Shown: positions 1 to 41,360, counted from the first letter of the stretch. The stretch: 41,360 bases of DNA from a virus (IMGVR_UViG_2778261164_000004:1-41360), one strand, 5' to 3'. Made by a program: numbers and translations. Notes: a model not told the origin generated them from the sequence alone.

Positions 1-1248
1 ATGGCACTGAATATTCCATTCAGAAATGCGTACTATCGTTTTGCATCCAGTTACTCATTTCTCTTTTTTATTTCCTGGTCGCTGTGGTGGTCGTTATACG
101 CTATTTGGCTGAAAGGACATCTAGGGTTGACAGGGACGGAATTAGGTACACTTTATTCGGTCAACCAGTTTACCAGCATTCTATTTATGATGTTCTACGG
201 CATCGTTCAGGATAAACTCGGTCTGAAGAAACCGCTCATCTGGTGTATGAGTTTCATCCTGGTCTTGACCGGACCGTTTATGATTTACGTTTATGAACCG
301 TTACTGCAAAGCAATTTTTCTGTAGGTCTAATTCTGGGGGCGCTATTTTTTGGCTTGGGGTATCTGGCGGGATGCGGTTTGCTTGATAGCTTCACCGAAA
401 AAATGGCGCGAAATTTTCATTTCGAATATGGAACAGCGCGCGCCTGGGGATCTTTTGGCTATGCTATTGGCGCGTTCTTTGCCGGCATATTTTTTAGTAT
501 CAGTCCCCATATCAACTTCTGGTTGGTCTCGCTATTTGGCGCTGTATTTATGATGATCAACATGCGTTTTAAAGATAAGGATCACCAGTGCGTAGCGGCA
601 GATGCGGGAGGGGTAAAAAAAGAGGATTTTATCGCAGTTTTCAAGGATCGAAACTTCTGGGTTTTCGTCATATTTATTGTGGGGACGTGGTCTTTCTATA
701 ACATTTTTGATCAACAACTTTTTCCTGTCTTTTATGCAGGTTTATTCGAATCACACGATGTAGGAACGCGCCTGTATGGTTATCTCAACTCATTCCAGGT
801 GGTACTCGAAGCGCTGTGCATGGCGATTATTCCTTTCTTTGTGAATCGGGTAGGGCCAAAAAATGCATTACTTATCGGAGTTGTGATTATGGCGTTGCGT
901 ATCCTTTCCTGCGCGCTGTTCGTTAACCCCTGGATTATTTCATTAGTGAAGTTGTTACATGCCATTGAGGTTCCACTTTGTGTCATATCCGTCTTCAAAT
1001 ACAGCGTGGCAAACTTTGATAAGCGCCTGTCGTCGACGATCTTTCTGATTGGTTTTCAAATTGCCAGTTCGCTTGGGATTGTGCTGCTTTCAACGCCGAC
1101 TGGGATACTCTTTGACCACGCAGGCTACCAGACAGTTTTCTTCGCAATTTCGGGTATTGTCTGCCTGATGTTGCTATTTGGCATTTTCTTCTTGAGTAAA
1201 AAACGCGAGCAAATAGTTATGGAAACGCCTGTACCTTCAGCAATATAG
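1..1248 (+). CDS. cscB: LacY-family oligosaccharide:H+ symporter, most likely sucrose permease CscB (415 aa)
   Basis: Full-length ORF from window base 1 to TAG at 1246-1248; 12-TM MFS-like hydrophobic profile; N-terminus MALNIPFRNAYYRF... and overall sequence match my recollection of CscB and align with LacY. Confidence 0.8.
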   Translation: MALNIPFRNAYYRFASSYSFLFFISWSLWWSLYAIWLKGHLGLTGTELGTLYSVNQFTSILFMMFYGIVQDKLGLKKPLIWCMSFILVLTGPFMIYVYEPLLQSNFSVGLILGALFFGLGYLAGCGLLDSFTEKMARNFHFEYGTARAWGSFGYAIGAFFAGIFFSISPHINFWLVSLFGAVFMMINMRFKDKDHQCVAADAGGVKKEDFIAVFKDRNFWVFVIFIVGTWSFYNIFDQQLFPVFYAGLFESHDVGTRLYGYLNSFQVVLEALCMAIIPFFVNRVGPKNALLIGVVIMALRILSCALFVNPWIISLVKLLHAIEVPLCVISVFKYSVANFDKRLSSTIFLIGFQIASSLGIVLLSTPTGILFDHAGYQTVFFAISGIVCLMLLFGIFFLSKKREQIVMETPVPSAI

Positions 1249-1256
1249 ACGTAAAC

Positions 1257-1301
1257 TTTTTCCGGTTGTTGTCGATAGCTCTATATCCCTCAACCGGAAA
1301 A
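1257..1301 (+). terminator. Inverted repeat downstream of permease gene (candidate terminator)
   Basis: ttccggttg (1259-1267) pairs with caaccggaa (1291-1299), T-run before and A-run after; the 23-nt loop makes it atypical. Confidence 0.35.
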
Positions 1302-1689
1302 TAATAATAGTAAAATGCTTAGCCCTGCTAATAATCGCCTAATCCAAACGCCTCATTCATGTTCTGGTACAGTCGCTCAAATGTACTTCAGATGCGCGGT
1401 TCGCTGATTTCCAGGACATTGTCGTCATTCAGTGACCTGTCCCGTGTATCACGGTCCTGCGAATTCATCAAGGAATGCATTGCGGAGTGAAGTATCGAGT
1501 CACGCCATATTTCGCTATCAGGATTCTGTGTGATGGTTACATCGCCCGGCTCAGGGCTGTTTAGTCATCAGCGCTTTCTGACAGTGCTGAGATTTCAACC
1601 TGTTGCAGTAAAAATGAGTAGATATAAGGCAAGTGTGCTGCCAAACCCATCTTTTACGGGGTGAAGGTAGATTTCGTTTGAAGGGTATC

Positions 1690-1704
1690 TGGTGTCCCCT
1701 GCAG
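1690..1704 (-). other. Prophage attachment core (left junction): 15-bp copy of tRNA-Arg 3' end
   Basis: tggtgtcccctgcag is the reverse complement of CTGCAGGGGACACCA, which I recall as the 3' end of argW; sequence diverges from the tRNA immediately after; excisionase lies about 70 bp inside. Confidence 0.6.
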
Positions 1705-1777
1705 ACATCTACTTGAAGCGGCAGGGGATTGATTGGAATGGTGTTTTTTAGGTGTGAGAAATATTTTACCCGCTATT

Positions 1778-1978
1778 TTACCCATTGGCGCGGCTTAAGA
1801 GCTTATTTTTGAATTCACAATGGTCACGATATAACCATCTTGCTCGCCCGTGGATAACTTTGGCTTTTGGCAGGTCGCCGGACTTAATCCGGTCGTAGAT
1901 GAAGGTTTTACCAAAGCCAGTATCAGCCATGATGAATTTCAAATCAACCAGGGAATCAGGCTGTAGTTCGTGTTGCAT
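1778..1978 (-). CDS. torI: Excisionase / recombination directionality factor, TorI-type (66 aa)
   Basis: 66-aa ORF MQHELQPDSLVDLKFIMADTGFGKTFIYDRIKSGDLPKAKVIHGRARWLYRDH... matches recalled TorI of the KplE1/CPS-53 prophage; GGAG RBS upstream; sits next to the att core at the opposite prophage end from the integrase. Confidence 0.85.
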   Translation of the reverse strand: MQHELQPDSLVDLKFIMADTGFGKTFIYDRIKSGDLPKAKVIHGRARWLYRDHCEFKNKLLSRANG

Positions 1979-2020
1979 GAGTGCTATCTCCGAATAGGGA
2001 ATCGAACCTGCAAATCAGGC

Positions 2021-2044
2021 AAGAAAAAGCCGCATTGATGCGGC
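2021..2044 (-). terminator. Rho-independent terminator upstream of torI (minus strand)
   Basis: Minus-strand RNA GCCGCA-UCAA-UGCGGC followed by UUUUUCUU (plus-strand A-run 2023-2028). Confidence 0.45.
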
Positions 2045-2101
2045 GATGGTAGGTCTGGATATCATTGAGCAATGAACAGGCCTCATCGAGTGTGAGGCGG
2101 G

Positions 2102-2446
2102 TTAGTCCTTGCGTAGCTCGCTGATTCTTCTGTAAGTCTCTGGTGCTTTGTTTCCGTGTATCTTCATTTCAGACTTCAACAGAGCAACGAGAGAATCCCA
2201 TTCGTTGAGGATGCCTTTGAATGCCGGAACGCGCTTTGCAACCTTGTCGAATGAATCTCTGATTTCTGGAATCTGCTCAACAAGTGCAACGCATCGCCGG
2301 AAGTCTGCTGCGTCATGGGGAGCGCCGAAGTGATGACCATAGATATTCTTTTTCAGTCCACATGCGATTGAGGCAAGAGTTGCGCTACTGATGCCGACAT
2401 CGCCAGTTGATTGCCATTTCAAAACCTTCATAGCCAAATCTGACAT
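2102..2446 (-). CDS. Hypothetical early-left protein (114 aa)
   Basis: ORF with GGAGA RBS 6 nt upstream of ATG at 2446; no family recognised. Confidence 0.55.
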   Translation of the reverse strand: MSDLAMKVLKWQSTGDVGISSATLASIACGLKKNIYGHHFGAPHDAADFRRCVALVEQIPEIRDSFDKVAKRVPAFKGILNEWDSLVALLKSEMKIHGNKAPETYRRISELRKD

Positions 2447-2518
2447 TTCTTGTCTCCATAAAACAAAACTCGCCGTAGCGAGCTCAGATAAAAGAAATCC
2501 CCGTCAGTGCGAGGATTG

Positions 2519-2803
2519 TTATTCATTGCTGATATTCACCTTTATCGCGAACACCTTTACCGGTTTATCACCGAAGTGCGGATGTGTGATTGTCTTGATC
2601 TCATATCCGTCATACGGAACATCAATTCTGCGGCTGGAATCGTCGCGCTTCGGATATCCCTTTGTGATAATCAGGCGGTCATATTCCCGGAACATAATTC
2701 GCTTATTCCAGTAGTCATTACACAGGCGATACTCTTCCGTTTTCTCCCCGCGAATCATGGCATCGAAGTATTCACCTTTAACGGCAAGTTGCAGGTTAGC
2801 CAC
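2519..2803 (-). CDS. Small ASCH/DUF3850-like protein (about 94 aa from GTG start)
   Basis: AGGAGG RBS precedes GTG at 2803, which sits just after the stop of the upstream gene; motif LAVKGEYFDAMIRGEKTEEYR resembles ASCH-like domains (recalled, unverified). Confidence 0.5.
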   Translation of the reverse strand: MANLQLAVKGEYFDAMIRGEKTEEYRLCNDYWNKRIMFREYDRLIITKGYPKRDDSSRRIDVPYDGYEIKTITHPHFGDKPVKVFAIKVNISNE

Positions 2804-3323
2804 GGTTAACCTCCTGCTGCGGTGCTGCTGGCATTTCACTCCAGTGCGTAACTGAGTGCGGATCCGGATATTCGGTGCCATCATCCCAGCGATTGCCATT
2901 CCACATTGCAGACCACATCTCACCGTCTTCATACATGACAATTACCGGAATTAACTTATCCGGCATTCGATCACTACAGCTTATCCAACCATCCGTAGTT
3001 ACCGGAGAGTTGCCATTTACATCGAAGTTTGGCTCTGCGTCCTGAACCAGGAGGATGTAACCATTCTTGGCAGTATCAAGTTCTAACGCCTCGGTGACGG
3101 TGCCGAAATAGCGATTACCTAAATCCGCATCACAAGTGCTTACATCAATGGAAACCTCCATCCCTTCGATTAATTCTGGCAAGTTGTAAGTTTGGCTTAC
3201 AGGCTCGGCTTCCAGCGATGCCAGTGCAATCCGTGCCAGTTCCATTTGTTCGCCACGAGTAAGTCCGTTATCAAGCGGATTTTTAATGAATAATTCGATA
3301 CGTTCTTTAGTGATAGTGCTCAT
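2796..3323 (-). CDS. Phage protein with DUF551-like C-terminal region (175 aa)
   Basis: AAGGAG RBS before ATG at 3323 (internal to the longer track ORF); Trp/Pro-rich C-terminus typical of DUF551 phage proteins (recalled). Confidence 0.5.
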   Translation of the reverse strand: MSTITKERIELFIKNPLDNGLTRGEQMELARIALASLEAEPVSQTYNLPELIEGMEVSIDVSTCDADLGNRYFGTVTEALELDTAKNGYILLVQDAEPNFDVNGNSPVTTDGWISCSDRMPDKLIPVIVMYEDGEMWSAMWNGNRWDDGTEYPDPHSVTHWSEMPAAPQQEVNRG

Positions 3324-3324
3324 A

Positions 3325-3876
3325 TCACTCTCCTTTGATGCGAATGCCTGTTGCAATGCTGTTTATGATGCTGTCAGTGCATGGGGTAGAAAGCTGGGCA
3401 TCTCCAGCAATTTTCATGACCTCAACATCTGCATATCGAATACCGAGGTGTATCAGACCAGCTATGCCTGACTTAAGCCGAGCATTTTCCATAAATAGAA
3501 CTTTTGCCCGCCGTTTTTCTGCCTCAAGCTCAACGCGCAGCTTCCCTACCGTTAGCGCAATATCCTCGTTCTCCTGGTCGCGGCGTTTGATGTATTGCTG
3601 GTTTCTTTCCCGTTCATCCAGAAGCGCCAGCACAGTAGCCGGATTGGCTGCGGCGATGAATTCAGCATTGGCCTGCTGTTCTATTTGGAAATCTTCATCG
3701 AAACCGCTTTCTGGATGCGCTCCTTCAATTCTGCAAATGGGAATATATCCAGCAACTTCACGATGAATTAGCGCATCATCACCATCAAATCGGCCCTCTC
3801 CATATTCGAGCGACCACTCGCCACACGTTGCTTTTTCTGCCTTAGCACGCAGTGCCTGATAGTCAATCTTGCTCAC
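3325..3876 (-). CDS. Hypothetical coiled-coil early protein (183 aa from GTG start)
   Basis: AAGGGAG RBS precedes GTG at 3876; C-terminal half charged and heptad-like. Confidence 0.45.
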   Translation of the reverse strand: MSKIDYQALRAKAEKATCGEWSLEYGEGRFDGDDALIHREVAGYIPICRIEGAHPESGFDEDFQIEQQANAEFIAAANPATVLALLDERERNQQYIKRRDQENEDIALTVGKLRVELEAEKRRAKVLFMENARLKSGIAGLIHLGIRYADVEVMKIAGDAQLSTPCTDSIINSIATGIRIKGE

Positions 3877-4168
3877 TGGTTGTCTCCCTTGCTGGGCTTT
3901 CGAATGTATCAAACTCAAACAACTTAACCACGTCATCAAACAGGACATAATCGCCATCAGGATCTTCAGTCATGTCAGCGCCACAATCCTGACCGAACGA
4001 GTCACAACCATCCATATCAAGCTCGTATCGCTTCAGGTTTGCGATATTTGATAAATTCAGCGCCAGTACAGCCAGGTCATAAACCTCTTCGGCGGTATAC
4101 CCTGCGCCATGCCCATACATTTCAATGCGGGATATGATTTCTTCTACCCGTTGTTTTGTGATCGTCAT
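3863..4168 (-). CDS. Hypothetical acidic early protein (101 aa)
   Basis: GGGAGG RBS upstream; ATG overlaps the stop of the upstream gene (ATGA). Confidence 0.5.
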   Translation of the reverse strand: MTITKQRVEEIISRIEMYGHGAGYTAEEVYDLAVLALNLSNIANLKRYELDMDGCDSFGQDCGADMTEDPDGDYVLFDDVVKLFEFDTFESPARETTSEQD

Positions 4169-4671
4169 TTTTGCTCACCTCCCTGTTCTTCCAGAAAAAT
4201 ACGCATAGCCTCAAGCATCTCTTCGGTGTCATACGGAGACAGCTTGTCACGCAGGATGTGTTCAATGCTGTTAATGAACTTTCGGATTGCTTTGCGTTCA
4301 ATTTCAGTCAGGAAAGCATCGGTGGCTGACATATTTCCTGTTGCCTTCATGGCCTTCAAAATAACCAGAACGCCATCTTGCCCAACCAACTCGGAGATAA
4401 TCTCAGTGTTGTCGCCAACAACATCACAGAATGCCTGAACAGCTTTACGAGCAAGTGCATTCTCCGCCGCCAGCGCCGCGCACTTGGCCTCAAGGTTATC
4501 AATCGTGATTCCAGCAGAACGACACTCCCGCAACGCCGTTTCCAGTTTTGATTCAAGTTCACCGAACTTACGGACAAGATATTCAGCGTTTGTTTCGTTA
4601 ACCTTTAAATCACTTGGGATGCATTTACCTTTCAGAAAACCATCCATCTCAATTAGTGACATTTGTTTCAT
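4165..4671 (-). CDS. Hypothetical early protein (168 aa)
   Basis: ORF whose ATG overlaps the stop of the upstream small gene (ATGA coupling). Confidence 0.5.
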
Positions 4672-4832
4672 TTCTTCCCACTCCGCAACATCGCATTCAG
4701 ATATTTGTTTTGATTCACTGATGGAAAAGAATTTCTCTTAAGCAATTCCTCTCTCGATGGCATTGGCTTTACGCGTTGGCGAATAATCATTTCTGCCGGA
4801 AGAATGCCGGGATTGTATGCAAGCCCTCTCAT
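4668..4832 (-). CDS. Small hypothetical protein (54 aa), below the ORF-track size cutoff
   Basis: GGAG RBS 8 nt upstream of ATG at 4832; ATGA overlaps with both flanking genes; translation [54 protein letters not shown]. Confidence 0.4.
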
Positions 4833-5119
4833 GATTTACTCTCCACGAACTGGTCAATAGCCATGCTAAGTGACACACCTAAAGTCTCGATATGTTGCTG
4901 AATATCCTGTAGCGTCTGCGCCTGAGATAACAGGATTTCACGGTTGCATAACTCTTTAACCAGATGCTCAAACTTGCTGTAATAACCGATACGGCTTAGT
5001 GTTTCTTTCCCTGCATTCTCGCCTTCTTTGATAATTCCTCTTTCGCTAAGAATCAGATCGTGTTTTGTTCCGGTAATAACGTATTTTCCGAGGTCGATGT
5101 TTAGCTTCATTGTTTTCAT
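4829..5119 (-). CDS. Hypothetical early protein (96 aa from internal ATG)
   Basis: GAGGA RBS 7 nt upstream of ATG at 5119; the longer upstream extension has no RBS. Confidence 0.45.
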
Positions 5120-5129
5120 TGTTAATTCC

Positions 5130-5426
5130 TCAGTCATTACTGATAGCGCCATAGCGTGAGCGGTAATTACGCAGGCGCAGGTCGATATATTCAGGGAAGT
5201 GGGTATATGTGGCTTTGCGGAATGGTCGGATTGATGTCTGGTAAATTCGCTCGCGTTCTTCTTTCTCTGCAAGCCATATACAGTGGCGAAATTCCTTTTC
5301 CTCTTTCGTTTCCTGCGGTAGAGACATTATCCGGTCGTAGTTTTTTCTGAATTTATCCAGCACCTCCGATACGGAATTGCCGGAACATCGGCGTGGGTCA
5401 TCCTCACCATACAGAGGCGCTGGCAT
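5130..5426 (-). CDS. Hypothetical early protein (98 aa)
   Basis: AAGGA RBS upstream of ATG at 5426. Confidence 0.5.
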   Translation of the reverse strand: MPAPLYGEDDPRRCSGNSVSEVLDKFRKNYDRIMSLPQETKEEKEFRHCIWLAEKEERERIYQTSIRPFRKATYTHFPEYIDLRLRNYRSRYGAISND

Positions 5427-5449
5427 AATGGAATCCTTATTTTTCTATA

Positions 5450-5833
5450 TCAGAATGGGATGGAATCGTCGTATACAGGAGTGTTCTGCTGGTTACTACT
5501 TTGCTGCTGCGGGCCATTTCCTGAAGCTGTAAATCCAATCTTTGCATTCAGTAATTCAAGAGTAATTGATTGACCATTTTGCCCCTGATAAACATCAACC
5601 CTGATGTTTTCTCCGGTAATTTCCACAATGCCACCTTCAACAAGAACGCTACGGTAGTAATCCGCTTGCGCTCCTGGCTTGGCAAATACAACGGCGCTGT
5701 AGTTTGTCCATTCTTTCTTTTTTGTCTGGCGATCGTAATACTGAACGCCAGCACGGATGTTGAATCCGATATTTTCCCCGGCCTGAAACTCTCTTGCGGG
5801 TTTGTTTAGTCTTACAGTAATCGAGTGTGCCAT
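5450..5833 (-). CDS. SSB-like single-stranded DNA-binding protein (127 aa)
   Basis: C-terminus ...PVYDDSIPF resembles the acidic DDDIPF tail of bacterial SSB; Gly/Gln-rich linker; ATG at 5833 overlaps the Erf stop (TAATG); located in the recombination module. Confidence 0.55.
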   Translation of the reverse strand: MAHSITVRLNKPAREFQAGENIGFNIRAGVQYYDRQTKKKEWTNYSAVVFAKPGAQADYYRSVLVEGGIVEITGENIRVDVYQGQNGQSITLELLNAKIGFTASGNGPQQQSSNQQNTPVYDDSIPF

Positions 5834-6438
5834 TAAGCAGCCGCTCCTTCTAATTCGTCTCGTCTTATGTTGTAAACGTCCTGCGCTTTGTGCTGCTCCG
5901 GTGTGCCTTCGAGCATCTTCCACGCTTTGGCGAACGCCTGTTTAAGCTCTTCCACGGTGTTTTTCTGCATTGCTGCGTCAGTGAATGCTTTTAGAACCTG
6001 TTCAGGTGTAAGTGATGGTTTTGATTGCTTTGCTGCTGCGTTCTGCTGATGTTTATGCTCGTCTGTATCTGCATCTTTCGCATCATCAATGCCGAACAAA
6101 CCATTGAGGCAATACTTGCGTGCATAAGAGCTTGTAGCTCCAGTAACTTGTGCAGAATCCATTCCTTTCTTGCTTTCTTCCTCTCGTGCAAGAGCGGTTG
6201 CCGTATGACTGTTTTCGCCATCGGTAATAGTTGCCGTGGCTTTCACATAATACCGATCACCAATCAACACAACTTCATCGCTGATTGATAAAAACAGGCC
6301 ATTCAGTAGCGGCTTAACGCCTTCAAGAATATCTTCGCAGCTTCTGTATTTATATTTACCGAATGAGTTGTATTGATTCTTTGGCGCGTTCAGATTCTCC
6401 TGAATAGCTGCCAGCCTTGCGTAAAATTCTTTGCTCAT
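5833..6438 (-). CDS. erf: Erf-family single-strand annealing recombinase
   Basis: MSKEFYARLAAIQENLNAPKNQYNSFGKYKYRSCEDILEGVKPLL... closely resembles recalled P22 Erf; start chosen at the MSKEFY methionine. Confidence 0.8.
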   Translation of the reverse strand: MSKEFYARLAAIQENLNAPKNQYNSFGKYKYRSCEDILEGVKPLLNGLFLSISDEVVLIGDRYYVKATATITDGENSHTATALAREEESKKGMDSAQVTGATSSYARKYCLNGLFGIDDAKDADTDEHKHQQNAAAKQSKPSLTPEQVLKAFTDAAMQKNTVEELKQAFAKAWKMLEGTPEQHKAQDVYNIRRDELEGAAA

Positions 6439-6448
6439 ATGATTGTTC

Positions 6449-6619
6449 TCAGAATGGACATGGCCCAAGGAAATAACGCTGATTTAATACTTCTACTCGT
6501 GACAAGTTAAGGCATACCCGCATTCCTTCGCGGTCGCCATTATGGCGATACCAGAGAGCTTTCTGCGTGTACATGCGTCTCTGTAACTTGCTCTCCTTCA
6601 CTGTGGTTGCAAGTGACAT
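6449..6619 (-). CDS. Small ORF upstream of erf (56 aa), Arf-position candidate
   Basis: AAGGAG RBS 6 nt upstream of ATG at 6619; stop TGA 10 nt before erf ATG; overlaps an alternative 52-aa ORF (6540-6698) in another frame, so the call is ambiguous. Confidence 0.3.
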   Translation of the reverse strand: MSLATTVKESKLQRRMYTQKALWYRHNGDREGMRVCLNLSRVEVLNQRYFLGPCPF

Positions 6620-6694
6620 GAATATCTCCTTCGTTACCGATTAATTCTTTCATCTGACGAATGAATTCTTCGTCTGACCAGTTATCTGTAAAAC

Positions 6695-6847
6695 TCATTT
6701 CCTGCGATACCACGGAATGTTGATCGCTGATTTCATCGCTTTATTTGCTTCAAGCCACATTTTGGAATCACCAATAAATCTGGCTATTACTGCTTTGTTT
6801 TGTGCTGCACGAAGCATCTGGTGATTGATGGCTATTTCATTGCGCAT
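6695..6847 (-). CDS. Kil-like small protein (50 aa), candidate cell-division inhibitor
   Basis: GGAGG RBS before ATG at 6847; segment IARFIGDSKMWLEA resembles my recollection of lambda Kil (IATFIGDEKMFREA); below track cutoff. Confidence 0.4.
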   Translation of the reverse strand: MRNEIAINHQMLRAAQNKAVIARFIGDSKMWLEANKAMKSAINIPWYRRK

Positions 6848-6966
6848 AACGCCTCCAGTTGTTTCTTTGCTGCTCTGATTAATTGTTTAACTCGGCGTGA
6901 TAATTCAGATTCGTGCGGGTAGAAAGCGGACATGACGCCGCTACCCGCGAGCTGAAAGTGCATCAT
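6832..6966 (-). CDS. Small hypothetical protein (44 aa)
   Basis: Strong AAGGAG RBS before ATGATG at 6966; internal start of a longer track ORF that lacks an RBS. Confidence 0.4.
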   Translation of the reverse strand: MMHFQLAGSGVMSAFYPHESELSRRVKQLIRAAKKQLEALCAMK

Positions 6967-7029
6967 GGGTAACTCCTTATATTTGATTGCATAACGAAAA
7001 CGCCTCGAGTGAAGCGTTATTGGTATGCA

Positions 7030-7056
7030 TATAAAAAGGCCCTCACACTGGAGGGC
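7030..7056 (-). terminator. Rho-independent terminator inside the early-left (PL) operon
   Basis: Minus-strand RNA GCCCUC-CAGUGU-GAGGGC followed by CUUUUUAU; stems at 7039-7044 and 7051-7056. Confidence 0.5.
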
Positions 7057-7192
7057 AAAGAAGATTTCCAATAATCAGAACAAGTCGGCTCCTGTTTAGT
7101 TACGAGCGATATTGCTCCGTGTATTCACTCGTTGGAATGAATACACAGTGCAGTGTTTATTCTGTTGTTTGTGCCAAAAATAAAGGCCACCA

Positions 7193-7444
7193 TCAGGCAG
7201 CCTTGTTGTAAATGTTGCAGGTATCAAGTAAGTAATTAGATGGAGCGCCATAAATTATGAATTCATCGTTTGTCGGGTCCATCTCCATCTCTTGGCCTAT
7301 TGCCATTCTTGCGTCAGTGTCATCAGCGGCGAAGCATAAAACAGCCCACGCACCCATTGTTTTAAAAAGAACTGCAATTGGCTGTGGTTTTACTGAATTT
7401 GCGTTAGCGCGAAAATCACAAATCGCACTTTCATGAAATTCCAT
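7193..7444 (-). CDS. Hypothetical early protein (83 aa)
   Basis: AGGTG RBS upstream of ATG at 7444; no family recognised. Confidence 0.45.
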   Translation of the reverse strand: MEFHESAICDFRANANSVKPQPIAVLFKTMGAWAVLCFAADDTDARMAIGQEMEMDPTNDEFIIYGAPSNYLLDTCNIYNKAA

Positions 7445-7506
7445 ATATCACCTAAAATAAGTGGTTTGCTGCCAAAACAATGAACCATCCGGAAATTCCA
7501 GATAGT

Positions 7507-7731
7507 TCATAATTCACTCTTCAATACTTCCAACTTACTAATCGCCGATAGATATCCGCGCTGATAGGGCATCATCATTCCTTCGAGCTTGCCACTTCTT
7601 AACTCCTCCCTGAGCAATTGTATTGCTTGATCAATAACCTCTGCCTTAGCGTCCTTTATGGCTTGCTTGCGGGGCTTTGCTTTCTGCTTTGGCAGATTTC
7701 TCAAGCATGATGGAATGTATGTCTGATTCAT
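7507..7731 (-). CDS. Hypothetical early protein (74 aa) immediately after the N-like gene
   Basis: GAGG RBS; ATG at 7731 follows the N-like stop by 3 nt. Confidence 0.45.
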   Translation of the reverse strand: MNQTYIPSCLRNLPKQKAKPRKQAIKDAKAEVIDQAIQLLREELRSGKLEGMMMPYQRGYLSAISKLEVLKSEL

Positions 7732-7734
7732 CAC

Positions 7735-8007
7735 TTACCTCGCCGTCAGTTGTTTTGATTTCCGGTAGCCTGCCGCGTAAATGGCTACGTTTGGCAGGCA
7801 AATACTTCCACTGCATTCATCTGCCTTCTTGCAGCGAAGGCTTCCGAGTGATGCTGCTTTATCTGCTCTGACGCAACCAGAGAGCTTTAGCGCAATCTTT
7901 CGCGCCAATCGCTGTTCTTGCATTGCCTGTTCACGTTGAGCCTGTCTGCGTGCTCTGCGGCGATTTCTGGCGTTATCGTCAGCCAGATATGTAATGACTA
8001 CTGTCAT
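7735..8007 (-). CDS. N-like transcription antiterminator candidate (90 aa) with arginine-rich motif
   Basis: First gene downstream of PL and nutL; contains NARNRRRARRQAQREQA, resembling the arginine-rich RNA-binding motif of lambdoid N proteins; GGAGG RBS 5 nt upstream of ATG. Confidence 0.5.
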   Translation of the reverse strand: MTVVITYLADDNARNRRRARRQAQREQAMQEQRLARKIALKLSGCVRADKAASLGSLRCKKADECSGSICLPNVAIYAAGYRKSKQLTAR

Positions 8008-8365
8008 GTTGACCTCCGATGATTGACTTTGGCGGTGACGCGCCGGGTGCTTATCTTCCGGTTGCCGTCGTGCAGCTGCACTTCACGTCACCCCAAAGCC
8101 AACTACTCTTTGACTCACACTCTCGCAGTGAGCGCGCTCATGCCCTTGAGTCTCTGTCGCTTATTAGCCGCTGATAACCGGTGCGCGTCTGGCATTCGCG
8201 CTGCCTTTCCGGAGCATGTTCCCTTATTTACCCTCACATCGGTCTGCTAAACCTGCTCGCCATTACGCGACTCGGGGCAGCATCATTACTGCTGCATTGC
8301 CTTTCGGCTGCGGTCTAACCGCGTTAGTGCACCATTACGGCACCTCCTGTTTGGTTAAACTCAGT

Positions 8366-8406
8366 TCCCGCATTTCGGCGGGACAATCCCATCAATGTTA
8401 AAGAGC
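8366..8406 (-). promoter_or_regulatory. nutL site (boxA GCUCUUUAACA + boxB hairpin)
   Basis: Minus-strand boxA at 8396-8406 and hairpin UCCCGC-CGAAAU-GCGGGA at 8366-8383; the same boxB sequence recurs on the plus strand after cro (nutR). Confidence 0.6.
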
Positions 8407-8452
8407 CTGCCAATCTGTTCCGTTTGGCTACCAGCGTCCTGCTGATGGCTAA

Positions 8453-8495
8453 AGAATACTGTAGGTATTTTATTGTGTAAATACCCAAGGTATTT
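8453..8495 (-). promoter_or_regulatory. OL operators and PL promoter
   Basis: Two palindromic operators AATAC-N5-GTATT (8455-8469) and AAATAC-N5-GTATTT (8479-8495) of the same family as the OR sites; minus-strand -35 TTTACA and -10 TATTCT with 17-bp spacer overlap them. Confidence 0.55.
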
Positions 8496-8625
8496 ATTTT
8501 TGGTGAAATAATGATAAGCAAATGAATACAAAGGATATTTATTTTTTCGTCGTCTGCTTGTTCAGTGCTTTTTATGCGGGATATGTGAAGTTGATCCCGA
8601 TAGCTATTGCTGCCGGGATTATGGG

Positions 8626-8993
8626 TTAGTCAGCGAAGGTTAAGACGAGAATTACCTTAATGATGTCTGCTACAACAGACACGGCCATAGATAAACCAAA
8701 GACGATCCAAGCCATAGAGATGTCTTCACTACCATCGTATAGAGTTCCGTAATCACTGGTGTAAGGCGTAAATGTCGCGCCTTGATACAATAGGTATAAG
8801 CTTGATCCATAGAGGATAAATGCAGATATCCCTTGTATTGCTATGATCACCAGAATCATGAAACGAGCTGATCTATGCGCCCAAGCCTGGCTTATTTTTT
8901 CTGATAGAGATTTCGCAAAAAAGCATGCGCTAAGCCGTAAATTGTTGAGATTGCCAACATCCCCAAAAAGCTTGCTATAGCGGTTCCAACCAT
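8626..8993 (-). CDS. Repressor-linked three-TM membrane protein; reading frame interrupted at a homopolymer tract (frameshift, pseudogene or slippage site)
   Basis: AAGGGGG RBS and ATG at 8993 open a hydrophobic 33-codon frame (MVGTAIASFLGMLAISTIYGLAHAF...) ending at TAA 8892-8894; the two-TM C-terminal part continues in another frame to 8626; frames rejoin if a coding-strand T6 run (plus 8917-8922) were T7. Confidence 0.45.
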
Positions 8994-9011
8994 AAGCGCC
9001 CCCTTGCGTGA

Positions 9012-9728
9012 TCAAACCAGTCTGAGTTTTGTCTCAATTGCAACGCCTATAATCTTGCAGTTTCCATTGATTGGCACGAGAGGCCATGCAGGATTAAGTC
9101 CCTTGAGGTATTTATTTCCGCCGTCGATTATCAGCTTCTTGAATGTTGCTTCGTTAGAGTCAGAAAGTTTTGCTATGACCAAGCTGCCGTTGATCGCCTC
9201 CCTTCCGGTATCGAAAAGAACGAATGTTCCCTCTGGAATGCTTAACCCAACCGGTGCCGTCATTGAATCACCTTCCACTTTAAGCCAGAACGCATTACCT
9301 TGAATATGCGCGTCAGACTCAAGCCAAACATCTATGTCTTTAATGGTGTATGGTTCGCATGCTTCACACCACGAGCCAGCCTGGATACTGCTTAACACCG
9401 GATACCTCTTTCCTGCTCTGTATTCTCCTGCATACCTTACGTTGGCATCGCTCTTAAGGCTTTCTGCCTGTTCTGCAACCTTGGCAGCAATTGACTGGCT
9501 AAAATCAGCAATTGAGACTTGCAACAGTCGTGCAAAACCAGATGCAACCTCAACGTTTAGCGCGTTTCTGCCATTAAGATAATGCCCTACCGCTCCTTGG
9601 GTGATACCCAGTTCATCAGCGATTGAGTATTGGGTTATTCCCAATTCTTTCTTTTTTGACTCATACAAAGCCTTAAGCCGCTTAGCGTCTTCTAGCTGTT
9701 CTGTCGTCAGTGATTTTTTATTTTCCAT
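9012..9728 (-). CDS. cI: Lambda CI-like prophage repressor (HTH + S24 LexA-like autopeptidase domain)
   Basis: N-terminus ...LTTEQLEDAKRLKALYESKKKELGITQ closely parallels lambda CI; C-terminal domain has the GDSM serine and AKL lysine motifs of S24 peptidases; divergent from cro. Confidence 0.9.
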   Translation of the reverse strand: MENKKSLTTEQLEDAKRLKALYESKKKELGITQYSIADELGITQGAVGHYLNGRNALNVEVASGFARLLQVSIADFSQSIAAKVAEQAESLKSDANVRYAGEYRAGKRYPVLSSIQAGSWCEACEPYTIKDIDVWLESDAHIQGNAFWLKVEGDSMTAPVGLSIPEGTFVLFDTGREAINGSLVIAKLSDSNEATFKKLIIDGGNKYLKGLNPAWPLVPINGNCKIIGVAIETKLRLV

Positions 9729-38108: not shown

Positions 38109-40064
38109 TTATATATCGATAATTATATTTCCAAACCCTTCAATTGCCTTTCTTGCTCCATATCTTGATAGATGATACTCATCAGAATACATAACGTCAC
38201 CTTTGTCAGATACTAGGTTACATCTCCCATTCCTACACATGAAATCATAAGGGTTTATAAACTTTATACTTCCGTTATCTGATAGCCATTTGTTTAAATA
38301 ATTATTGCTATCTAACCTATCACCGCTTTCTGTGCTGAAAATACTATCAATGCATTTCTTTTCAACATATGAAGGTCGGCTCACACAAGAAAGACCGCCG
38401 TCAGAGCCTATTGCTGCCGGGTGGTTTCCAATAACAATTACTTTCTGATTTGTGTACTCTTGAATATTGTTAATAACGGAAGCATTGAATTTCATATAAT
38501 CATGGTCTCCGTTGAATTTATACACATTACCATCTTTATCAGATAGCATCTCCATGTACCTAAGCCATGATTGTGCATAAACAAGTGGTATCTTATTATA
38601 TTTAGAGTAATCTATCGCTTTTGTTCCTATCTTCACACCATATACAGAAACCTTCCCTTTTTCTGTAACGTAAACGCTATTTGATAGATATGCCCCATCA
38701 GCGAAGAATGCTGCTGCTGATAGATTTCTCTTTGCAAGAAATTCACTCATGGCTAATGAATACTGTCTTGCATAACTGTCACCCATGAAAACAAATGATG
38801 GCTTTTTGGTTTTATCTCCAAGAACTACCATTTCACCTTGCTTAACCCCAAAGCCTCCGAATAAATATTCTTTAAATCCAGGTTTGAGCATTTCCATGTT
38901 TTCTTTATAATTTTGTATTCTAAATGCAAATCCGTTGTCTTTTATTGAAGATGAATACGAAATCATAACCAATATAGTTAATGATAAAAGCAATACTGAT
39001 TTGTAGCAAAACTCATTTATTTTTATCTTTCTGAATTTATTTTCTATTGCGTTGTACATTAAGAATCCAACAGCCAGCGAAGATAAAATCAATGATGCTT
39101 TCTCGATATCATTTAACTCTCTATATATCCAGTATTTGTAAAACACAATAATAGGCCAGTGAATTAGATAAACTGAATACGATATCAGGCCTATCGTAAC
39201 GCTGACCCTGTTATTCACAGCGAAGCCAGCGTATTTTGCATCATGTGAAAGAATGCAAAGCATGGCACCCAATACGGGAATCATGGCATGCAAACCAGGG
39301 AACTGAGTTGATGATGAGTAAAGCAACGCAGATGATACTATCATCGCAAGTCCCGCAGCCATCATAGACTCCTTCATTAGTTCAGATGGTTTTATCCATC
39401 GAGAAATGAAGAATGCGAGTCCGCCGAAAGACAACTCAAAAACCCTGAACGGCATCCAGTAGTATGCTTCAGTTTGCATGTTTATAGTTGCCCACTGAGA
39501 GGATGCCAGAGAAGCAATACTAATAATAACCAGAACCCATGGCACAAGGCTCTTTTTTACTAAATATACTGCTCCGATAATCAGAGGCCATACAAGATAG
39601 AACTGCTGTTCTACACCAAGAGACCATGTGTGCAACAATGGATTTATTTCTGATGATGTATCGAAATAACCAACGCTTTGTGCAAAAAATATATTTGATG
39701 CTGAATACAACGCATATATTGCTGATTTAGATACACTAACAAAATCAGAAGGTGAGTACAGAATAAAGCACCCAGCAAAAACGGCGATCAGCGTTGCTAT
39801 AAGAGCAGGGTACAGTCTTGCTATCCTGGCGAACATGAAATTAATGTAACTGAAAGTTCCATTCTCAGTTTGATTGAAAATTATTCCAGTTATCAGATAA
39901 CCAGAAATAACAAAAAATACATCAACGCCAACAAACCCTCCGGGAACACTGCTGAACCCTACATGAAATATAAGAACTAAAATGACGGCAACAGCACGGA
40001 GTCCATCAACTCCTGGCTGGTAATTTTTAGACAATGTTTTGTCAGTCTTCAAAAGAAAGCTCAT
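38109..40064 (-). CDS. O-antigen acyltransferase, acyltransferase-3 membrane domain fused to SGNH domain (OafA/Oac-like, 651 aa)
   Basis: N-terminal AT3 motifs (DGLRAVAVILVLIFHV, FFVISGYLIT), about 10 TM segments, C-terminal GDS(Y) SGNH motif; markedly AT-rich compared with neighbours; sits between tailspike and integrase. Confidence 0.8.
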   Translation of the reverse strand: MSFLLKTDKTLSKNYQPGVDGLRAVAVILVLIFHVGFSSVPGGFVGVDVFFVISGYLITGIIFNQTENGTFSYINFMFARIARLYPALIATLIAVFAGCFILYSPSDFVSVSKSAIYALYSASNIFFAQSVGYFDTSSEINPLLHTWSLGVEQQFYLVWPLIIGAVYLVKKSLVPWVLVIISIASLASSQWATINMQTEAYYWMPFRVFELSFGGLAFFISRWIKPSELMKESMMAAGLAMIVSSALLYSSSTQFPGLHAMIPVLGAMLCILSHDAKYAGFAVNNRVSVTIGLISYSVYLIHWPIIVFYKYWIYRELNDIEKASLILSSLAVGFLMYNAIENKFRKIKINEFCYKSVLLLSLTILVMISYSSSIKDNGFAFRIQNYKENMEMLKPGFKEYLFGGFGVKQGEMVVLGDKTKKPSFVFMGDSYARQYSLAMSEFLAKRNLSAAAFFADGAYLSNSVYVTEKGKVSVYGVKIGTKAIDYSKYNKIPLVYAQSWLRYMEMLSDKDGNVYKFNGDHDYMKFNASVINNIQEYTNQKVIVIGNHPAAIGSDGGLSCVSRPSYVEKKCIDSIFSTESGDRLDSNNYLNKWLSDNGSIKFINPYDFMCRNGRCNLVSDKGDVMYSDEYHLSRYGARKAIEGFGNIIIDI

Positions 40065-40202
40065 TATTCATCCGTATTCATTCTTTTTTGCTGTGCTGAT
40101 ATTAGCACTGACATCGCCACCGATCGACTTTTGAAGTGGTAACTAGGCGAAAACGGGATACACAAAGCTTTGCATTGGTTTGCAAGGCTTTGTGCTGTTT
40201 TT

Positions 40203-41360
40203 CTACGACACCCTCTCATCGAGATAATCCGCCCACCACTGCATCATCTCCCTGCGCTTATCGAGATACTGAGCATGGTTGTAAATCCCACGCACAGATC
40301 CGCCGTTGGCATGTGCCAGTTGCACTTCAATAGCGTCAGCAGGCCATTCGTGCTCGTTCATAATCGTGCTGAATTCATGCCTGAATCCGTGACCGCTTTC
40401 CAGACCCTCATAGCCAATTTGTTTGATCACAAGCAATACCGCGTTCTCGCAGATTGGCTTCTTCTTATCGTTGCGACCGGCAAAAACAAACTCTGATACT
40501 GGTTTGGTGATTGAGCTTAGTGTAGTGAGAAGTTCAACCACCTGGTCTGACATCGGGACAACATGAATTTTGCGTCCCTTCATCACACTGGCGTCGATGG
40601 TGATAATCCTGTTTTCAAAATCGACGTTCTTCCATAGCATGGAACGAAGCTCTTTCGTTCTTAGGGCTGTGTAGCGTAAAACTTTGGTCGCAATGAGCGA
40701 TACGATACTTCCTGAAAATGTTGCCAGTGCTTTGTTGAATGCCGGGATCTGGTCTGCTGGAAGAAACGGGAAGTTCTTCTTGCGGTATCCTTTCATGGCG
40801 TCTGCAAGGTCAGGTGCCGGGTTATATTTAGCCCTTCCGGTGACAATAGCGTAACGGAAAACCTCGCCGCATCTTCTGCGGGCTTTGTTGGCTCGCTCCA
40901 TTGCACCGCGATCTTCAAATCTGCGGATTACTTCCAGCAGTTGCATCGGCTCAATATCCTGAATCTCAAGACCGCCGATGATGGGTAAAATGTCGTCATC
41001 AAACATTTTGGCAAGTTCAGTTGCATAGCCTACTGACCAGACTTGCTTCTTGTGCTCGTACCATTCCTTGTAAATCGCACTAAATGAATTGTTGTTAGAC
41101 GAAGCCTTTTTCGCCTTTACCGGATCGATGCCAACCGAGATGTCTTTCCTCGCGGTCCATGCTTTATCCCTTGCTTCCTGCAAAGTCATAAGCGGATATT
41201 TTCCGACGGTCAGGATTTTCTCCTTACCGTCAATCTTGTAGCGAAGCTGCCATACCTTTTTCCCGGATACAGGGACATAAAGGTACAGGCCATTACCATC
41301 GAGAAGGCGGTATGGTTTTTCTTTCGGCTTAGCTGCTTCAATCTGCTTAACGGTGAGCAT
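40203..41360 (-). CDS. intS: Tyrosine integrase, IntS type (385 aa), start codon at window end
   Basis: MLTVKQIEAAKPKEKPYRLLDGNGLYLYVPVSGKKVWQLRYKIDGKEK... and C-terminal catalytic motifs (HGFRH, Y near the C-terminus) match recalled E. coli IntS of CPS-53/KplE1. Confidence 0.9.
   Translation of the reverse strand: MLTVKQIEAAKPKEKPYRLLDGNGLYLYVPVSGKKVWQLRYKIDGKEKILTVGKYPLMTLQEARDKAWTARKDISVGIDPVKAKKASSNNNSFSAIYKEWYEHKKQVWSVGYATELAKMFDDDILPIIGGLEIQDIEPMQLLEVIRRFEDRGAMERANKARRRCGEVFRYAIVTGRAKYNPAPDLADAMKGYRKKNFPFLPADQIPAFNKALATFSGSIVSLIATKVLRYTALRTKELRSMLWKNVDFENRIITIDASVMKGRKIHVVPMSDQVVELLTTLSSITKPVSEFVFAGRNDKKKPICENAVLLVIKQIGYEGLESGHGFRHEFSTIMNEHEWPADAIEVQLAHANGGSVRGIYNHAQYLDKRREMMQWWADYLDERVS

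Follow-up and report, generated by a model that had tools for sequence, protein, structure and literature searches.

A probable 'ea' accessory segment encoding Abc2 and an EaE/Oad2-family protein in a P22-like Escherichia coli prophage

The window analysed here is a stretch of 41,360 nucleotides (nt) of viral DNA (IMGVR_UViG_2778261164_000004:1-41360), and a Pfam scan of its proteins revealed that it carries a complete P22-like Escherichia coli prophage. We investigated nine minus-strand open reading frames (ORFs) that fill positions 2102-5426, between a TorI-type excisionase gene and a module consisting of an SSB-like gene and erf, and we refer to them as g1 to g9 in order of rising coordinate. 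In our reading, to which we assign a probability of about 0.65, this chain is the 'ea' accessory segment, which forms the non-essential distal end of the prophage's early-left (PL) operon. The original prediction had placed nine genes between the excisionase and the SSB/Erf module, with which the ORFs, the PHROG matches and the flanking genes agree, and had viewed them as candidate anti-defence cargo of unknown function. The evidence partly supports a role in counter-defence, which two of the nine genes fit: g9, which is well characterised, and g6, which is a relative of an inhibitor.

The early-left gene chain

All nine proteins matched PHROG families (E <= 1e-32), most of the genes are preceded by a GGAG-type ribosome-binding site, and the exact proteins, including those of g4 and g2, which start at GTG, have all been deposited publicly under NCBI names. 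On these sequence comparisons we take the nine genes to be real. The five junctions that had been predicted from the sequence proved exact: ATGA overlaps join g8 to g7 (4832/4829), g7 to g6 (4671/4668) and g6 to g5 (4168/4165), and longer overlaps of 14 nt and 8 nt join g5 to g4 (3876/3863) and g3 to g2 (2803/2796), respectively. A single nucleotide separates g4 from g3, and gaps of 10 nt and 23 nt lie between g9 and g8 and between the SSB-like gene and g9, the order at that end being erf, SSB-like gene, g9. The only open junction is that between g2 and g1, where 72 nt hold two terminator-like hairpins. Tight gene packing is normal in phage early operons, so the observation of the chain is correct yet not unusual; with its nine proteins already deposited, the chain is an ordinary, catalogued instance of a known region.

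The label of unknown function no longer applies to g9 (5130-5426, minus strand). Its 98-residue product matches Pfam PF11043 (Anti-RecBCD_p2) from end to end (residues 1-98 of 98; 199.9 bits against a cut-off of 25; E 5.9e-60), is 90.8% identical to P22 Abc2 and 94.9% identical to gp30 of phage HK446, and matches the protein named 'Anti-RecBCD protein 2' in PDB entries 8B1T and 8B1U (E 2e-54 for 8B1T chain A). The gene lies directly downstream of the genes for phage single-strand annealing (erf) and the SSB-like protein. By sequence, g9 is Abc2, anti-RecBCD protein 2, with RecC binding and modification of RecBCD carried over from the P22 homologue. The binding site of Abc2 is on RecC, at the Chi-recognition domains, and the structure of Abc2 on RecBCD has been solved; it probably aids loading of the phage recombinase, and RecBCD is not switched off (Wilkinson et al. 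2022, PMC9836394). For seven of the other genes the original description stands to the extent that they belong to catalogued families without an assigned role. The further claim that the chain offers only weak domain hints could not be upheld: five of the nine proteins scored above the Pfam cut-offs (Anti-RecBCD_p2, Ead_Ea22, DUF2737, DUF551 and DUF5405). None of the nine matched a PADLOC-DB defence model at E <= 0.01, comparison with NCBIfam returned noise only, and PDB sequence searches gave no match for g1 to g8; g1, g5 and g6 were without a match in Pfam, NCBIfam or PDB sequences alike.

The second gene with a link to counter-defence, g6 (4165-4671, minus strand), encodes a segmentally mosaic protein of 168 residues that is 55% identical to HK446 gp27 over its full length (175 alignment columns; E 3e-57). 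It also occupies the gp27 position, right after DUF2737 with the same ATGA overlap, in the abc2-proximal part of the early-left operon. A preprint of July 2026 (10.64898/2026.07.10.737580) describes P2 OLD as an abortive ABC-ATPase/TOPRIM tRNase that is triggered upon RecBCD inhibition and also by gp33 of HK75 and HK446, which is sufficient for toxicity. HK446 gp27, named Oad2, was reported to bind OLD directly and to block its activation, whereas the HK75 homologue, which at 54% identity diverges from Oad2 to a degree similar to that of g6, gives no protection from P2 OLD (10.64898/2026.07.10.737580). We recomputed the identity of gp27 and HK75_28 and obtained the same 54%, which confirms the gene numbering. 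Comparison by module revealed that residues 1-72 are common to g6, Oad2 and HK75_28 at 93% identity, that the middle module is unrelated among the three (9-18%; 16% between g6 and Oad2), and that the C-terminal module of g6 is 30% identical to that of Oad2 and 13% identical to that of HK75. Since the active Oad2 and the inactive HK75 homologue share residues 1-72, specificity for OLD must lie in the variable half. Membership of g6 in the EaE/Oad2 family is strongly supported by these comparisons. Since residues 1-72 are kept and the variable modules differ, its target is probably a different OLD variant or a different protein.

The family to which g6 belongs is large (at least 7992 clusters at 90% identity), and an alignment of 34 relatives revealed four modules that assort independently and are joined at the invariant motifs LAAENA and ATDAFLxE. 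An AlphaFold2 (AF2) monomer model of g6 built from this 34-sequence alignment was all-helical and of low confidence, with a predicted local distance difference test score (pLDDT) of 56 and a predicted template modelling score (pTM) of 0.27; a poor monomer model would be expected of an obligate coiled-coil oligomer.

The placement of the whole chain follows from comparison with known phages. In P22, the 'ea' region between erf and xis holds abc2, orf56, eaE, orf45, eaF, eaD, eaI, eaA, eaG and eaC. The chain has the same position, strand logic and gene order (erf, abc1, abc2, orf56, eaE, eaD, eaA, xis), and modules of EaE, EaD and EaA reappear in g6, g4 and g3. Mapped on P22, the window reads abc2, (g8), orf56, eaE-type, (g5), eaD-type, short eaA-type, (g2), (g1), xis. 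P22 is without the DUF5405, g5, ASCH-like and g1 genes, whereas the window is without abc1, eaF, eaI, eaG and eaC of P22; g3 lacks the central segment of P22 EaA, and the identity of g6 to P22 EaE is about 32% over just 72 residues. The excision module is of the TorI/KplE1 type here, whereas P22 has P22 xis; the virion genes of the window are P22-type. In HK446 the order is identical from gp33 through Erf, gp31, Abc2, gp29 and gp28 to gp27, and the proteins from gp33 to gp28 are 88-100% identical to those of the window. However, gp27 is the last gene before xis in HK446, whereas the window has five more genes after g6.

In lambda and Stx phages, the exo-xis region (ea22, ea8.5, orf60a, orf61, orf63) holds the equivalent place in the PL operon, from the recombination genes to xis. 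It is non-essential and early-expressed and includes an Ead/Ea22-family gene and, in some Stx variants, DUF551. Beyond the Ead/Ea22 core and DUF551, however, its genes are unrelated to those of the window, and lambda has Gam, Exo and Bet where this phage has Abc2, Erf and the SSB-like protein. The accessory regions described by Silas et al. (10.1101/2023.04.06.535777) embody the same concept, with variable content between conserved anchors, and they hold known counter-defence genes such as abc2 beside unknown small genes.

Sister loci revealed how variable this segment is. Of 5426 complete E. coli genomes, 3515 contained pieces of the 3.5-kb segment, as did 612 phage records, and in none of those genomes or records was at least 80% of it found. 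The chain of nine genes recurs unchanged beside cscB in two E. coli assemblies (loci L090 and L094). We collected 80 viral contigs with an Abc2 at least 97% identical to g9 and analysed the 43 that had enough downstream DNA. Only abc2 and DUF2737 were constant (43/43), gene content fell into 32 different patterns, and no locus shared more than five of the nine alleles. The genes g8, g5, g2 and g1 were either near-identical or absent, being found in 16, 5, 17 and 20 loci, respectively, and g6, g4 and g3 were represented almost only by diverged or partial relatives. Likewise, clusters at 90% identity held 724-1623 sequences for g1, g2, g7, g8 and g9 and 201 for g5, several of these cassette clusters being seen on at least 1000 contigs, and the clusters of g6 and of g4 were singletons. 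The 32 patterns around constant abc2 and DUF2737 mark the place as a known accessory hotspot. These comparisons strongly support a view in which g8, g5, g2 and g1 behave as present-or-absent cassettes and g6, g4 and g3 appear reshuffled module by module at short conserved motifs. Other cargo of the same slot in the sister loci comprised two clusters of Lar restriction-alleviation genes together with ea8.5, DUF4752, DUF7739, DUF7446 and a DNA polymerase III theta-like gene, and most of the recurrent ORF clusters there were without a Pfam family. The chain thus sits, as had been proposed, in an early-left accessory slot of a lambdoid prophage that carries counter-defence genes, namely Abc2 here and Lar in sister loci, and its proteins do not all match housekeeping functions.

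By analogy with lambda and P22, transcription after infection or induction would start at PL, downstream of the cI-type repressor gene, and the N antiterminator would permit read-through of several intrinsic terminators. The PL transcript would cross kil, cIII, the homologue of gp33, erf, the SSB-like gene and then the chain from g9 to g1 in the direction of the excisionase gene, with overlapping or abutting stop and start codons coupling translation from g8 through g2. Expression would be expected early in infection or after induction and not in the repressed lysogen. Abc2 would co-opt RecBCD for the phage Erf recombinase via the Chi-recognition domains of RecC, and g8, g7, g5, g4, g3, g2 and g1 would be interchangeable cargo of the recombination hotspot.

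Several points weigh against reading the chain in this way, and against its counter-defence component in particular. PL, antitermination and translational coupling are inferred from the sequence and from lambda and P22 biology. Nothing found here indicates an anti-defence role for the seven genes other than g9 and g6, and the anti-defence part of the original prediction stands for those two only. The library of Silas et al. held a DUF5405 gene and a DUF551 fragment (10.1101/2023.04.06.535777), and the main text of that study reports no phenotype for either and does not mention the entries 'orf3' and 'orf175'; a search with six peptide motifs found none of the window proteins in the library. 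The activity of Oad2 is known from a single preprint, and the part of Oad2 that bears its specificity is not conserved in g6 (16% identity in the middle module and 30% in the C-terminal one). Since the HK75 homologue is inactive at 54% identity, the 55% identity of g6 is no predictor of its activity. Finally, among the families of these seven genes experimental data come from Ea22 alone, the family of g4, and they point to lysogeny control rather than counter-defence.

Alternative roles for the chain

The product of g4 (3325-3876, minus strand; GTG start; 183 residues) matches PF13935 (Ead_Ea22) over residues 2-152 (116.9 bits against a cut-off of 27; E 1.3e-33), and the exact protein bears the NCBI name 'ead/Ea22-like family protein'. 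It is 80% identical to P22 EaD, an identity confined to the coiled-coil core (residues 84-123). The adjoining g3 (2796-3323, minus strand) encodes a short EaA-type protein of 175 residues in which an acidic linker connects an EaA N-terminal module to a DUF551 domain. Its identity to P22 EaA is 86% at the N-terminus (residues 1-42) and 37.5% at the C-terminus, and residues 112-169 match PF04448 (DUF551; 64.2 bits against a cut-off of 22; E 2.1e-17). The possibility that g4 and g3 represent a split Ea22-DUF551 fusion was rejected, since g3 has its own EaA-type N-terminus and ribosome-binding site. DUF551 had been counted among the weak hints, which its score contradicts, whereas the ASCH hint given for g2 (2519-2803, minus strand; GTG start; 94 residues) is truly weak. 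The g2 protein matches phrog_625 (E 1.7e-51), and the exact protein bears the NCBI name 'ASCH domain-containing protein', but its match to Pfam ASCH (PF04266) is below threshold (14.3 bits against a cut-off of 21.2; E 0.068) and covers residues 6-28 only. Iyer and colleagues reportedly described in 2006 a signature of ASCH (PUA-like) proteins near the N-terminus, GxKxxExR, and residues 19-26 of g2 (GEKTEEYR) fit this pattern.

Ea22 of lambda and Stx phages is pro-lysogenic, and deletion of ea22 moves development away from lysogeny (PMC7093339, PMC10834534). The clear membership of g4 in this family favours an alternative in which most of the chain would consist of modulators of development or host physiology (lysis-lysogeny, induction, host survival), like the exo-xis region of lambda, which we consider somewhat unlikely. 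Also consistent with it are two coiled-coil profiles, phrog_368 and phrog_492, that match both g4 and g6 and that g6 shares with Ea22-type proteins, the ea8.5-type genes in the same slot of sister loci, and the presence of DUF551 in YfdS, which has been linked to oxidative-stress tolerance (PMC10834534). However, neither Abc2 nor the Oad2 relative is a developmental regulator, and g4 resembles lambda Ea22 in the Ead/Ea22 core only, the C-terminal domains being different (PMC10834534). Moreover, alleles and genes turn over here to an extreme degree, as is more typical of genes at odds with variable host factors than of those that regulate the phage's own circuit. A developmental role of this kind and a role in counter-defence do not exclude each other.

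The genes nearest to abc2 raise a different possibility. The 96-residue DUF5405 protein encoded by g8 (4829-5119, minus strand), the cassette between abc2 and DUF2737, matches PF17399 marginally (25.4 bits against a cut-off of 21.6) and is 100% identical to HK446 gp29; the same allele was found in each of the sister loci that have the gene (16/43). Its family is labelled 'replication initiation protein' (phrog_154; HK446 gp29), which finds no support in Pfam or NCBIfam and looks like a propagated annotation. The next gene, g7 (4668-4832, minus strand), has ATGA overlaps at both ends and encodes a protein of 54 residues with an isoelectric point (pI) of 11. This small gene, predicted although it fell below the ORF-track cut-off, was substantiated by a full-length match to DUF2737 (PF10930; 110.5 bits against a cut-off of 25; E 3.4e-32) and by 77% identity to P22 orf56. 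Together, g8 and g7, and possibly g6 and g5, might be accessory factors of Erf/SSB/Abc2 recombination with a role in DNA metabolism. In all 43 loci DUF2737 is found along with abc2, and in P22, HK446 and HK75 it is the conserved gene that comes next, g8 with its PHROG label lies between the two, and the P22 recombination module has poorly understood helpers in Abc1 and Arf (PMC12315714). We nevertheless judge this unlikely: DUF2737, g6 and g5 also stand together behind RecT-type modules without Abc2 (L089, L093), the label on g8 is unsupported, and g8 is absent from 27 of the 43 loci with near-identical Abc2. In addition, in a survey covering 325 lambdoid phages, Rec modules were very rarely interrupted by other genes, and genes located downstream were not assigned to the Rec functions (PMC12315714).

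The mosaicism itself could be taken to mean that much of the chain is dispensable DNA, kept by linkage or by recombination at junction motifs and perhaps subject to homing-type spread. Breakpoints do lie inside genes at short conserved motifs, any gene but abc2 and DUF2737 can be missing, and some relatives of g6 are named HNH endonuclease, owing to fusions (family search; 10.64898/2026.07.10.737580). An intergenic hairpin element is also found at different cassette borders. This is the 72-nt spacer between g2 and g1 (2447-2518, minus strand), with terminator-like hairpins at 2517-2496 and 2485-2466. Most of the sister loci fetched contain the spacer at about 90-97% identity, often between different flanking genes and in some loci in more than one copy; it appears to be a conserved terminator or cassette-boundary element of these early-left operons. 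We regard the explanation as improbable, however. None of the ORFs is disrupted, and their ribosome-binding sites are good; copies of the cassette genes at 90% identity or above occur on thousands of contigs (201-1623 sequences per cluster); and invariant polar residues persist in the g1 family at an identity of about 35%, a sign of purifying selection on function.

That the chain might instead hold prophage-encoded defence or superinfection-exclusion genes protecting the lysogen is suggested by the variability of the region, variable prophage slots often carrying defence genes, but it is very unlikely: PADLOC models match 0 of 9 proteins, no sigma-70-like promoter was predicted on the minus strand within 2100-5450, the typical lysogen-expressed slot here adjoins cI (8626-9015), and, as part of the PL operon with N-dependent terminators ahead of them, the genes should be silent in a repressed prophage.

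Setting of the chain in the prophage

At its start the window contains a gene that, from its sequence, we take to be cscB, for a sucrose permease. The prophage abuts cscB, and a sister strain has dsdC there instead. The excisionase gene (1778-1978, minus strand) encodes a TorI-type protein of 66 residues that matches phrog_66 (excisionase), and its counterpart in strain STECUZB006 is annotated torI. Between it and g1, on the same strand, lie two terminator-like hairpins (2098-2080 and 2044-2029, within 2029-2098), the second of which is followed by TTTTTCTT. Terminator-like hairpins were also predicted after N, and none on the minus strand within 2520-5450.

On the other side of the chain, all on the minus strand, the SSB-like gene (5450-5833) matches phrog_44 (SSB; E 7.8e-27), and its product is 95% identical to HK446 gp31, itself a hypothetical protein in RefSeq; a Pfam SSB match was absent at E <= 0.01. 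The C-terminus of the SSB-like protein, DDSIPF, resembles the acidic tip of bacterial SSB. The erf gene (5833-6438; ERF Pfam E 3.8e-44) encodes a protein 99.5% identical to HK446 gp32. Just upstream of erf is the gp33 homologue (6540-6698), 88% identical to HK446 gp33 and 92% identical to HK75_33; the PHROG label 'recombinase' for its family seems unlikely, because the protein has 52 residues only. Then come kil (6695-6847; Pfam Lambda_Kil), cIII (within 6832-7071; Pfam cIII), the N antiterminator gene (7735-8007; Pfam N_peptide), a predicted PL-like promoter site (8481-8453) and the cI-type repressor gene (9012-9728; Pfam HTH_3 and Peptidase_S24). An ORF for 129 residues (8626-9015) begins within the stop region of the repressor gene, with 4 nt in common; its product has hydrophobic stretches and matched no Pfam family. 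The rex/sieB-type slot beside cI is the usual site of lysogen-expressed exclusion or defence genes, and the position of this ORF corresponds to that slot. The 129-residue gene also follows cI in locus L090.

Elsewhere in the window, Pfam matches included DnaB helicase, large terminase, P22 portal, P22 coat and a tailspike with a P22 head-binding domain. At the far end of the prophage, the integrase gene (40203-41360; Pfam) is adjoined by an AT3-SGNH acyltransferase gene (Pfam), probably for O-antigen modification. The TorI-type excisionase and the integrase lie at opposite prophage ends (1-1978 and 38109-41360), as they do in KplE1/CPS-53. No tRNA genes were found in the window, no Rfam matches in 1200-9000, and no meaningful repeats within 1700-6500.

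Two plus-strand ORFs, 2507-2809 (antisense to g2/g3) and 3335-3766 (antisense to g4), match PHROG 20945 (E 6e-64) and PHROG 13760 (E 2e-26), respectively. We set them aside as most likely shadow ORFs and not genes, because the opposite strand of exactly the same DNA, at least 90% conserved among phages, encodes well-supported genes, and because RefSeq leaves them unannotated in a sister locus. PHROGs 20945 and 13760 most likely arose from the annotation of such ORFs in some phage records before the families were clustered.

The g1 family and the g6/g5 cassette

The gene farthest from abc2, g1 (2102-2446, minus strand), encodes a 114-residue protein of a large family without a Pfam model. Its predicted structure is confident (pLDDT 93.7, pTM 0.87) and consists of seven helices, and the predicted fold had no counterpart among PDB structures; in BFVD it found solely uncharacterised phage proteins, including one of a Clavibacter phage (TM 0.79). 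A profile search yielded 2845 clusters (50% identity) at E <= 1e-3 among 1.84 billion representatives. Fifty members of the family, at about 35% identity, keep W11, S20, P43, D45, D48, R51, C52 and W83, and a profile of these 50 members gave no match to PDB sequences. From the invariant S/D/D/R/C constellation and the model, g1 may be an enzyme or a ligand binder. Among 20 long representatives examined for domain fusions, Pfam domains were found in one only. This member (P0510, 558 residues) is joined to a PolyA_pol-head/HD architecture as in CCA-adding enzymes, a single case that may be a merged gene call; given this one fusion, the function of g1 may be linked to tRNA. Another member (P0405) consists of two tandem copies, and single distant relatives used as queries matched no viral contigs.

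The partner of g6 is g5 (3863-4168, minus strand), an acidic orphan of 101 residues (pI 4.05, net charge -17) that matches phrog_3126 (E 8e-63); its family is narrow, with 267 clusters. In all 8 genomic contexts of the exact g6 protein g5 comes next, including loci with Rad52- or RecT-type recombinases and without Abc2, and each of the 8 viral loci with the C-terminal module of g6 also has g5. This co-occurrence points to one recombination block that extends from inside g6 through g5. Both g5 and g3 (pI 4.13, net charge -20) are strongly acidic small early proteins, as are DNA-mimic anti-restriction proteins of the Ocr/ArdA type. Their composition is compatible with DNA mimicry, which nothing else supports, no match to a known DNA mimic having been found for either protein in Pfam, PHROG functions or PDB sequences. 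The operon of this one prophage combines a homologue of the reported OLD trigger gp33, the RecBCD modifier Abc2 and an Oad2-type gene. Across loci, the gp33-like gene was present in 62 of 68, and it is so nearly universal that its co-variation with the EaE N-terminal module is uninformative.

A counter-defence cassette could be formed by g6 and g5. The constant residues 1-72 of g6 would serve as a scaffold, and the exchangeable modules would confer specificity against OLD-family or other ABC-ATPase/TOPRIM nucleases. The acidic g5 would be a co-factor, because it always travels with the C-terminal module of g6. Taken jointly with a role of the g1 family as a possible enzyme or ligand binder, this proposal is tentative and, in our estimate, doubtful.

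Between abc2 and xis lie a proven RecBCD modifier and a relative of a newly reported OLD inhibitor, and in sister phages Lar is found there, which makes the small genes that share this slot reasonable candidates for a counter-defence screen. The finding itself adds little to what is known of this region; its value is as a pointer to the g6/g5 cassette and to the g1 family, a large family without a Pfam model whose confidently predicted fold has no solved counterpart. The extraordinary diversification of the EaE/Oad2 family by module exchange is the pattern to be expected if each allele were matched to a different host target, and if the cassette proposal is true, the family would constitute a natural library of modular immune inhibitors.

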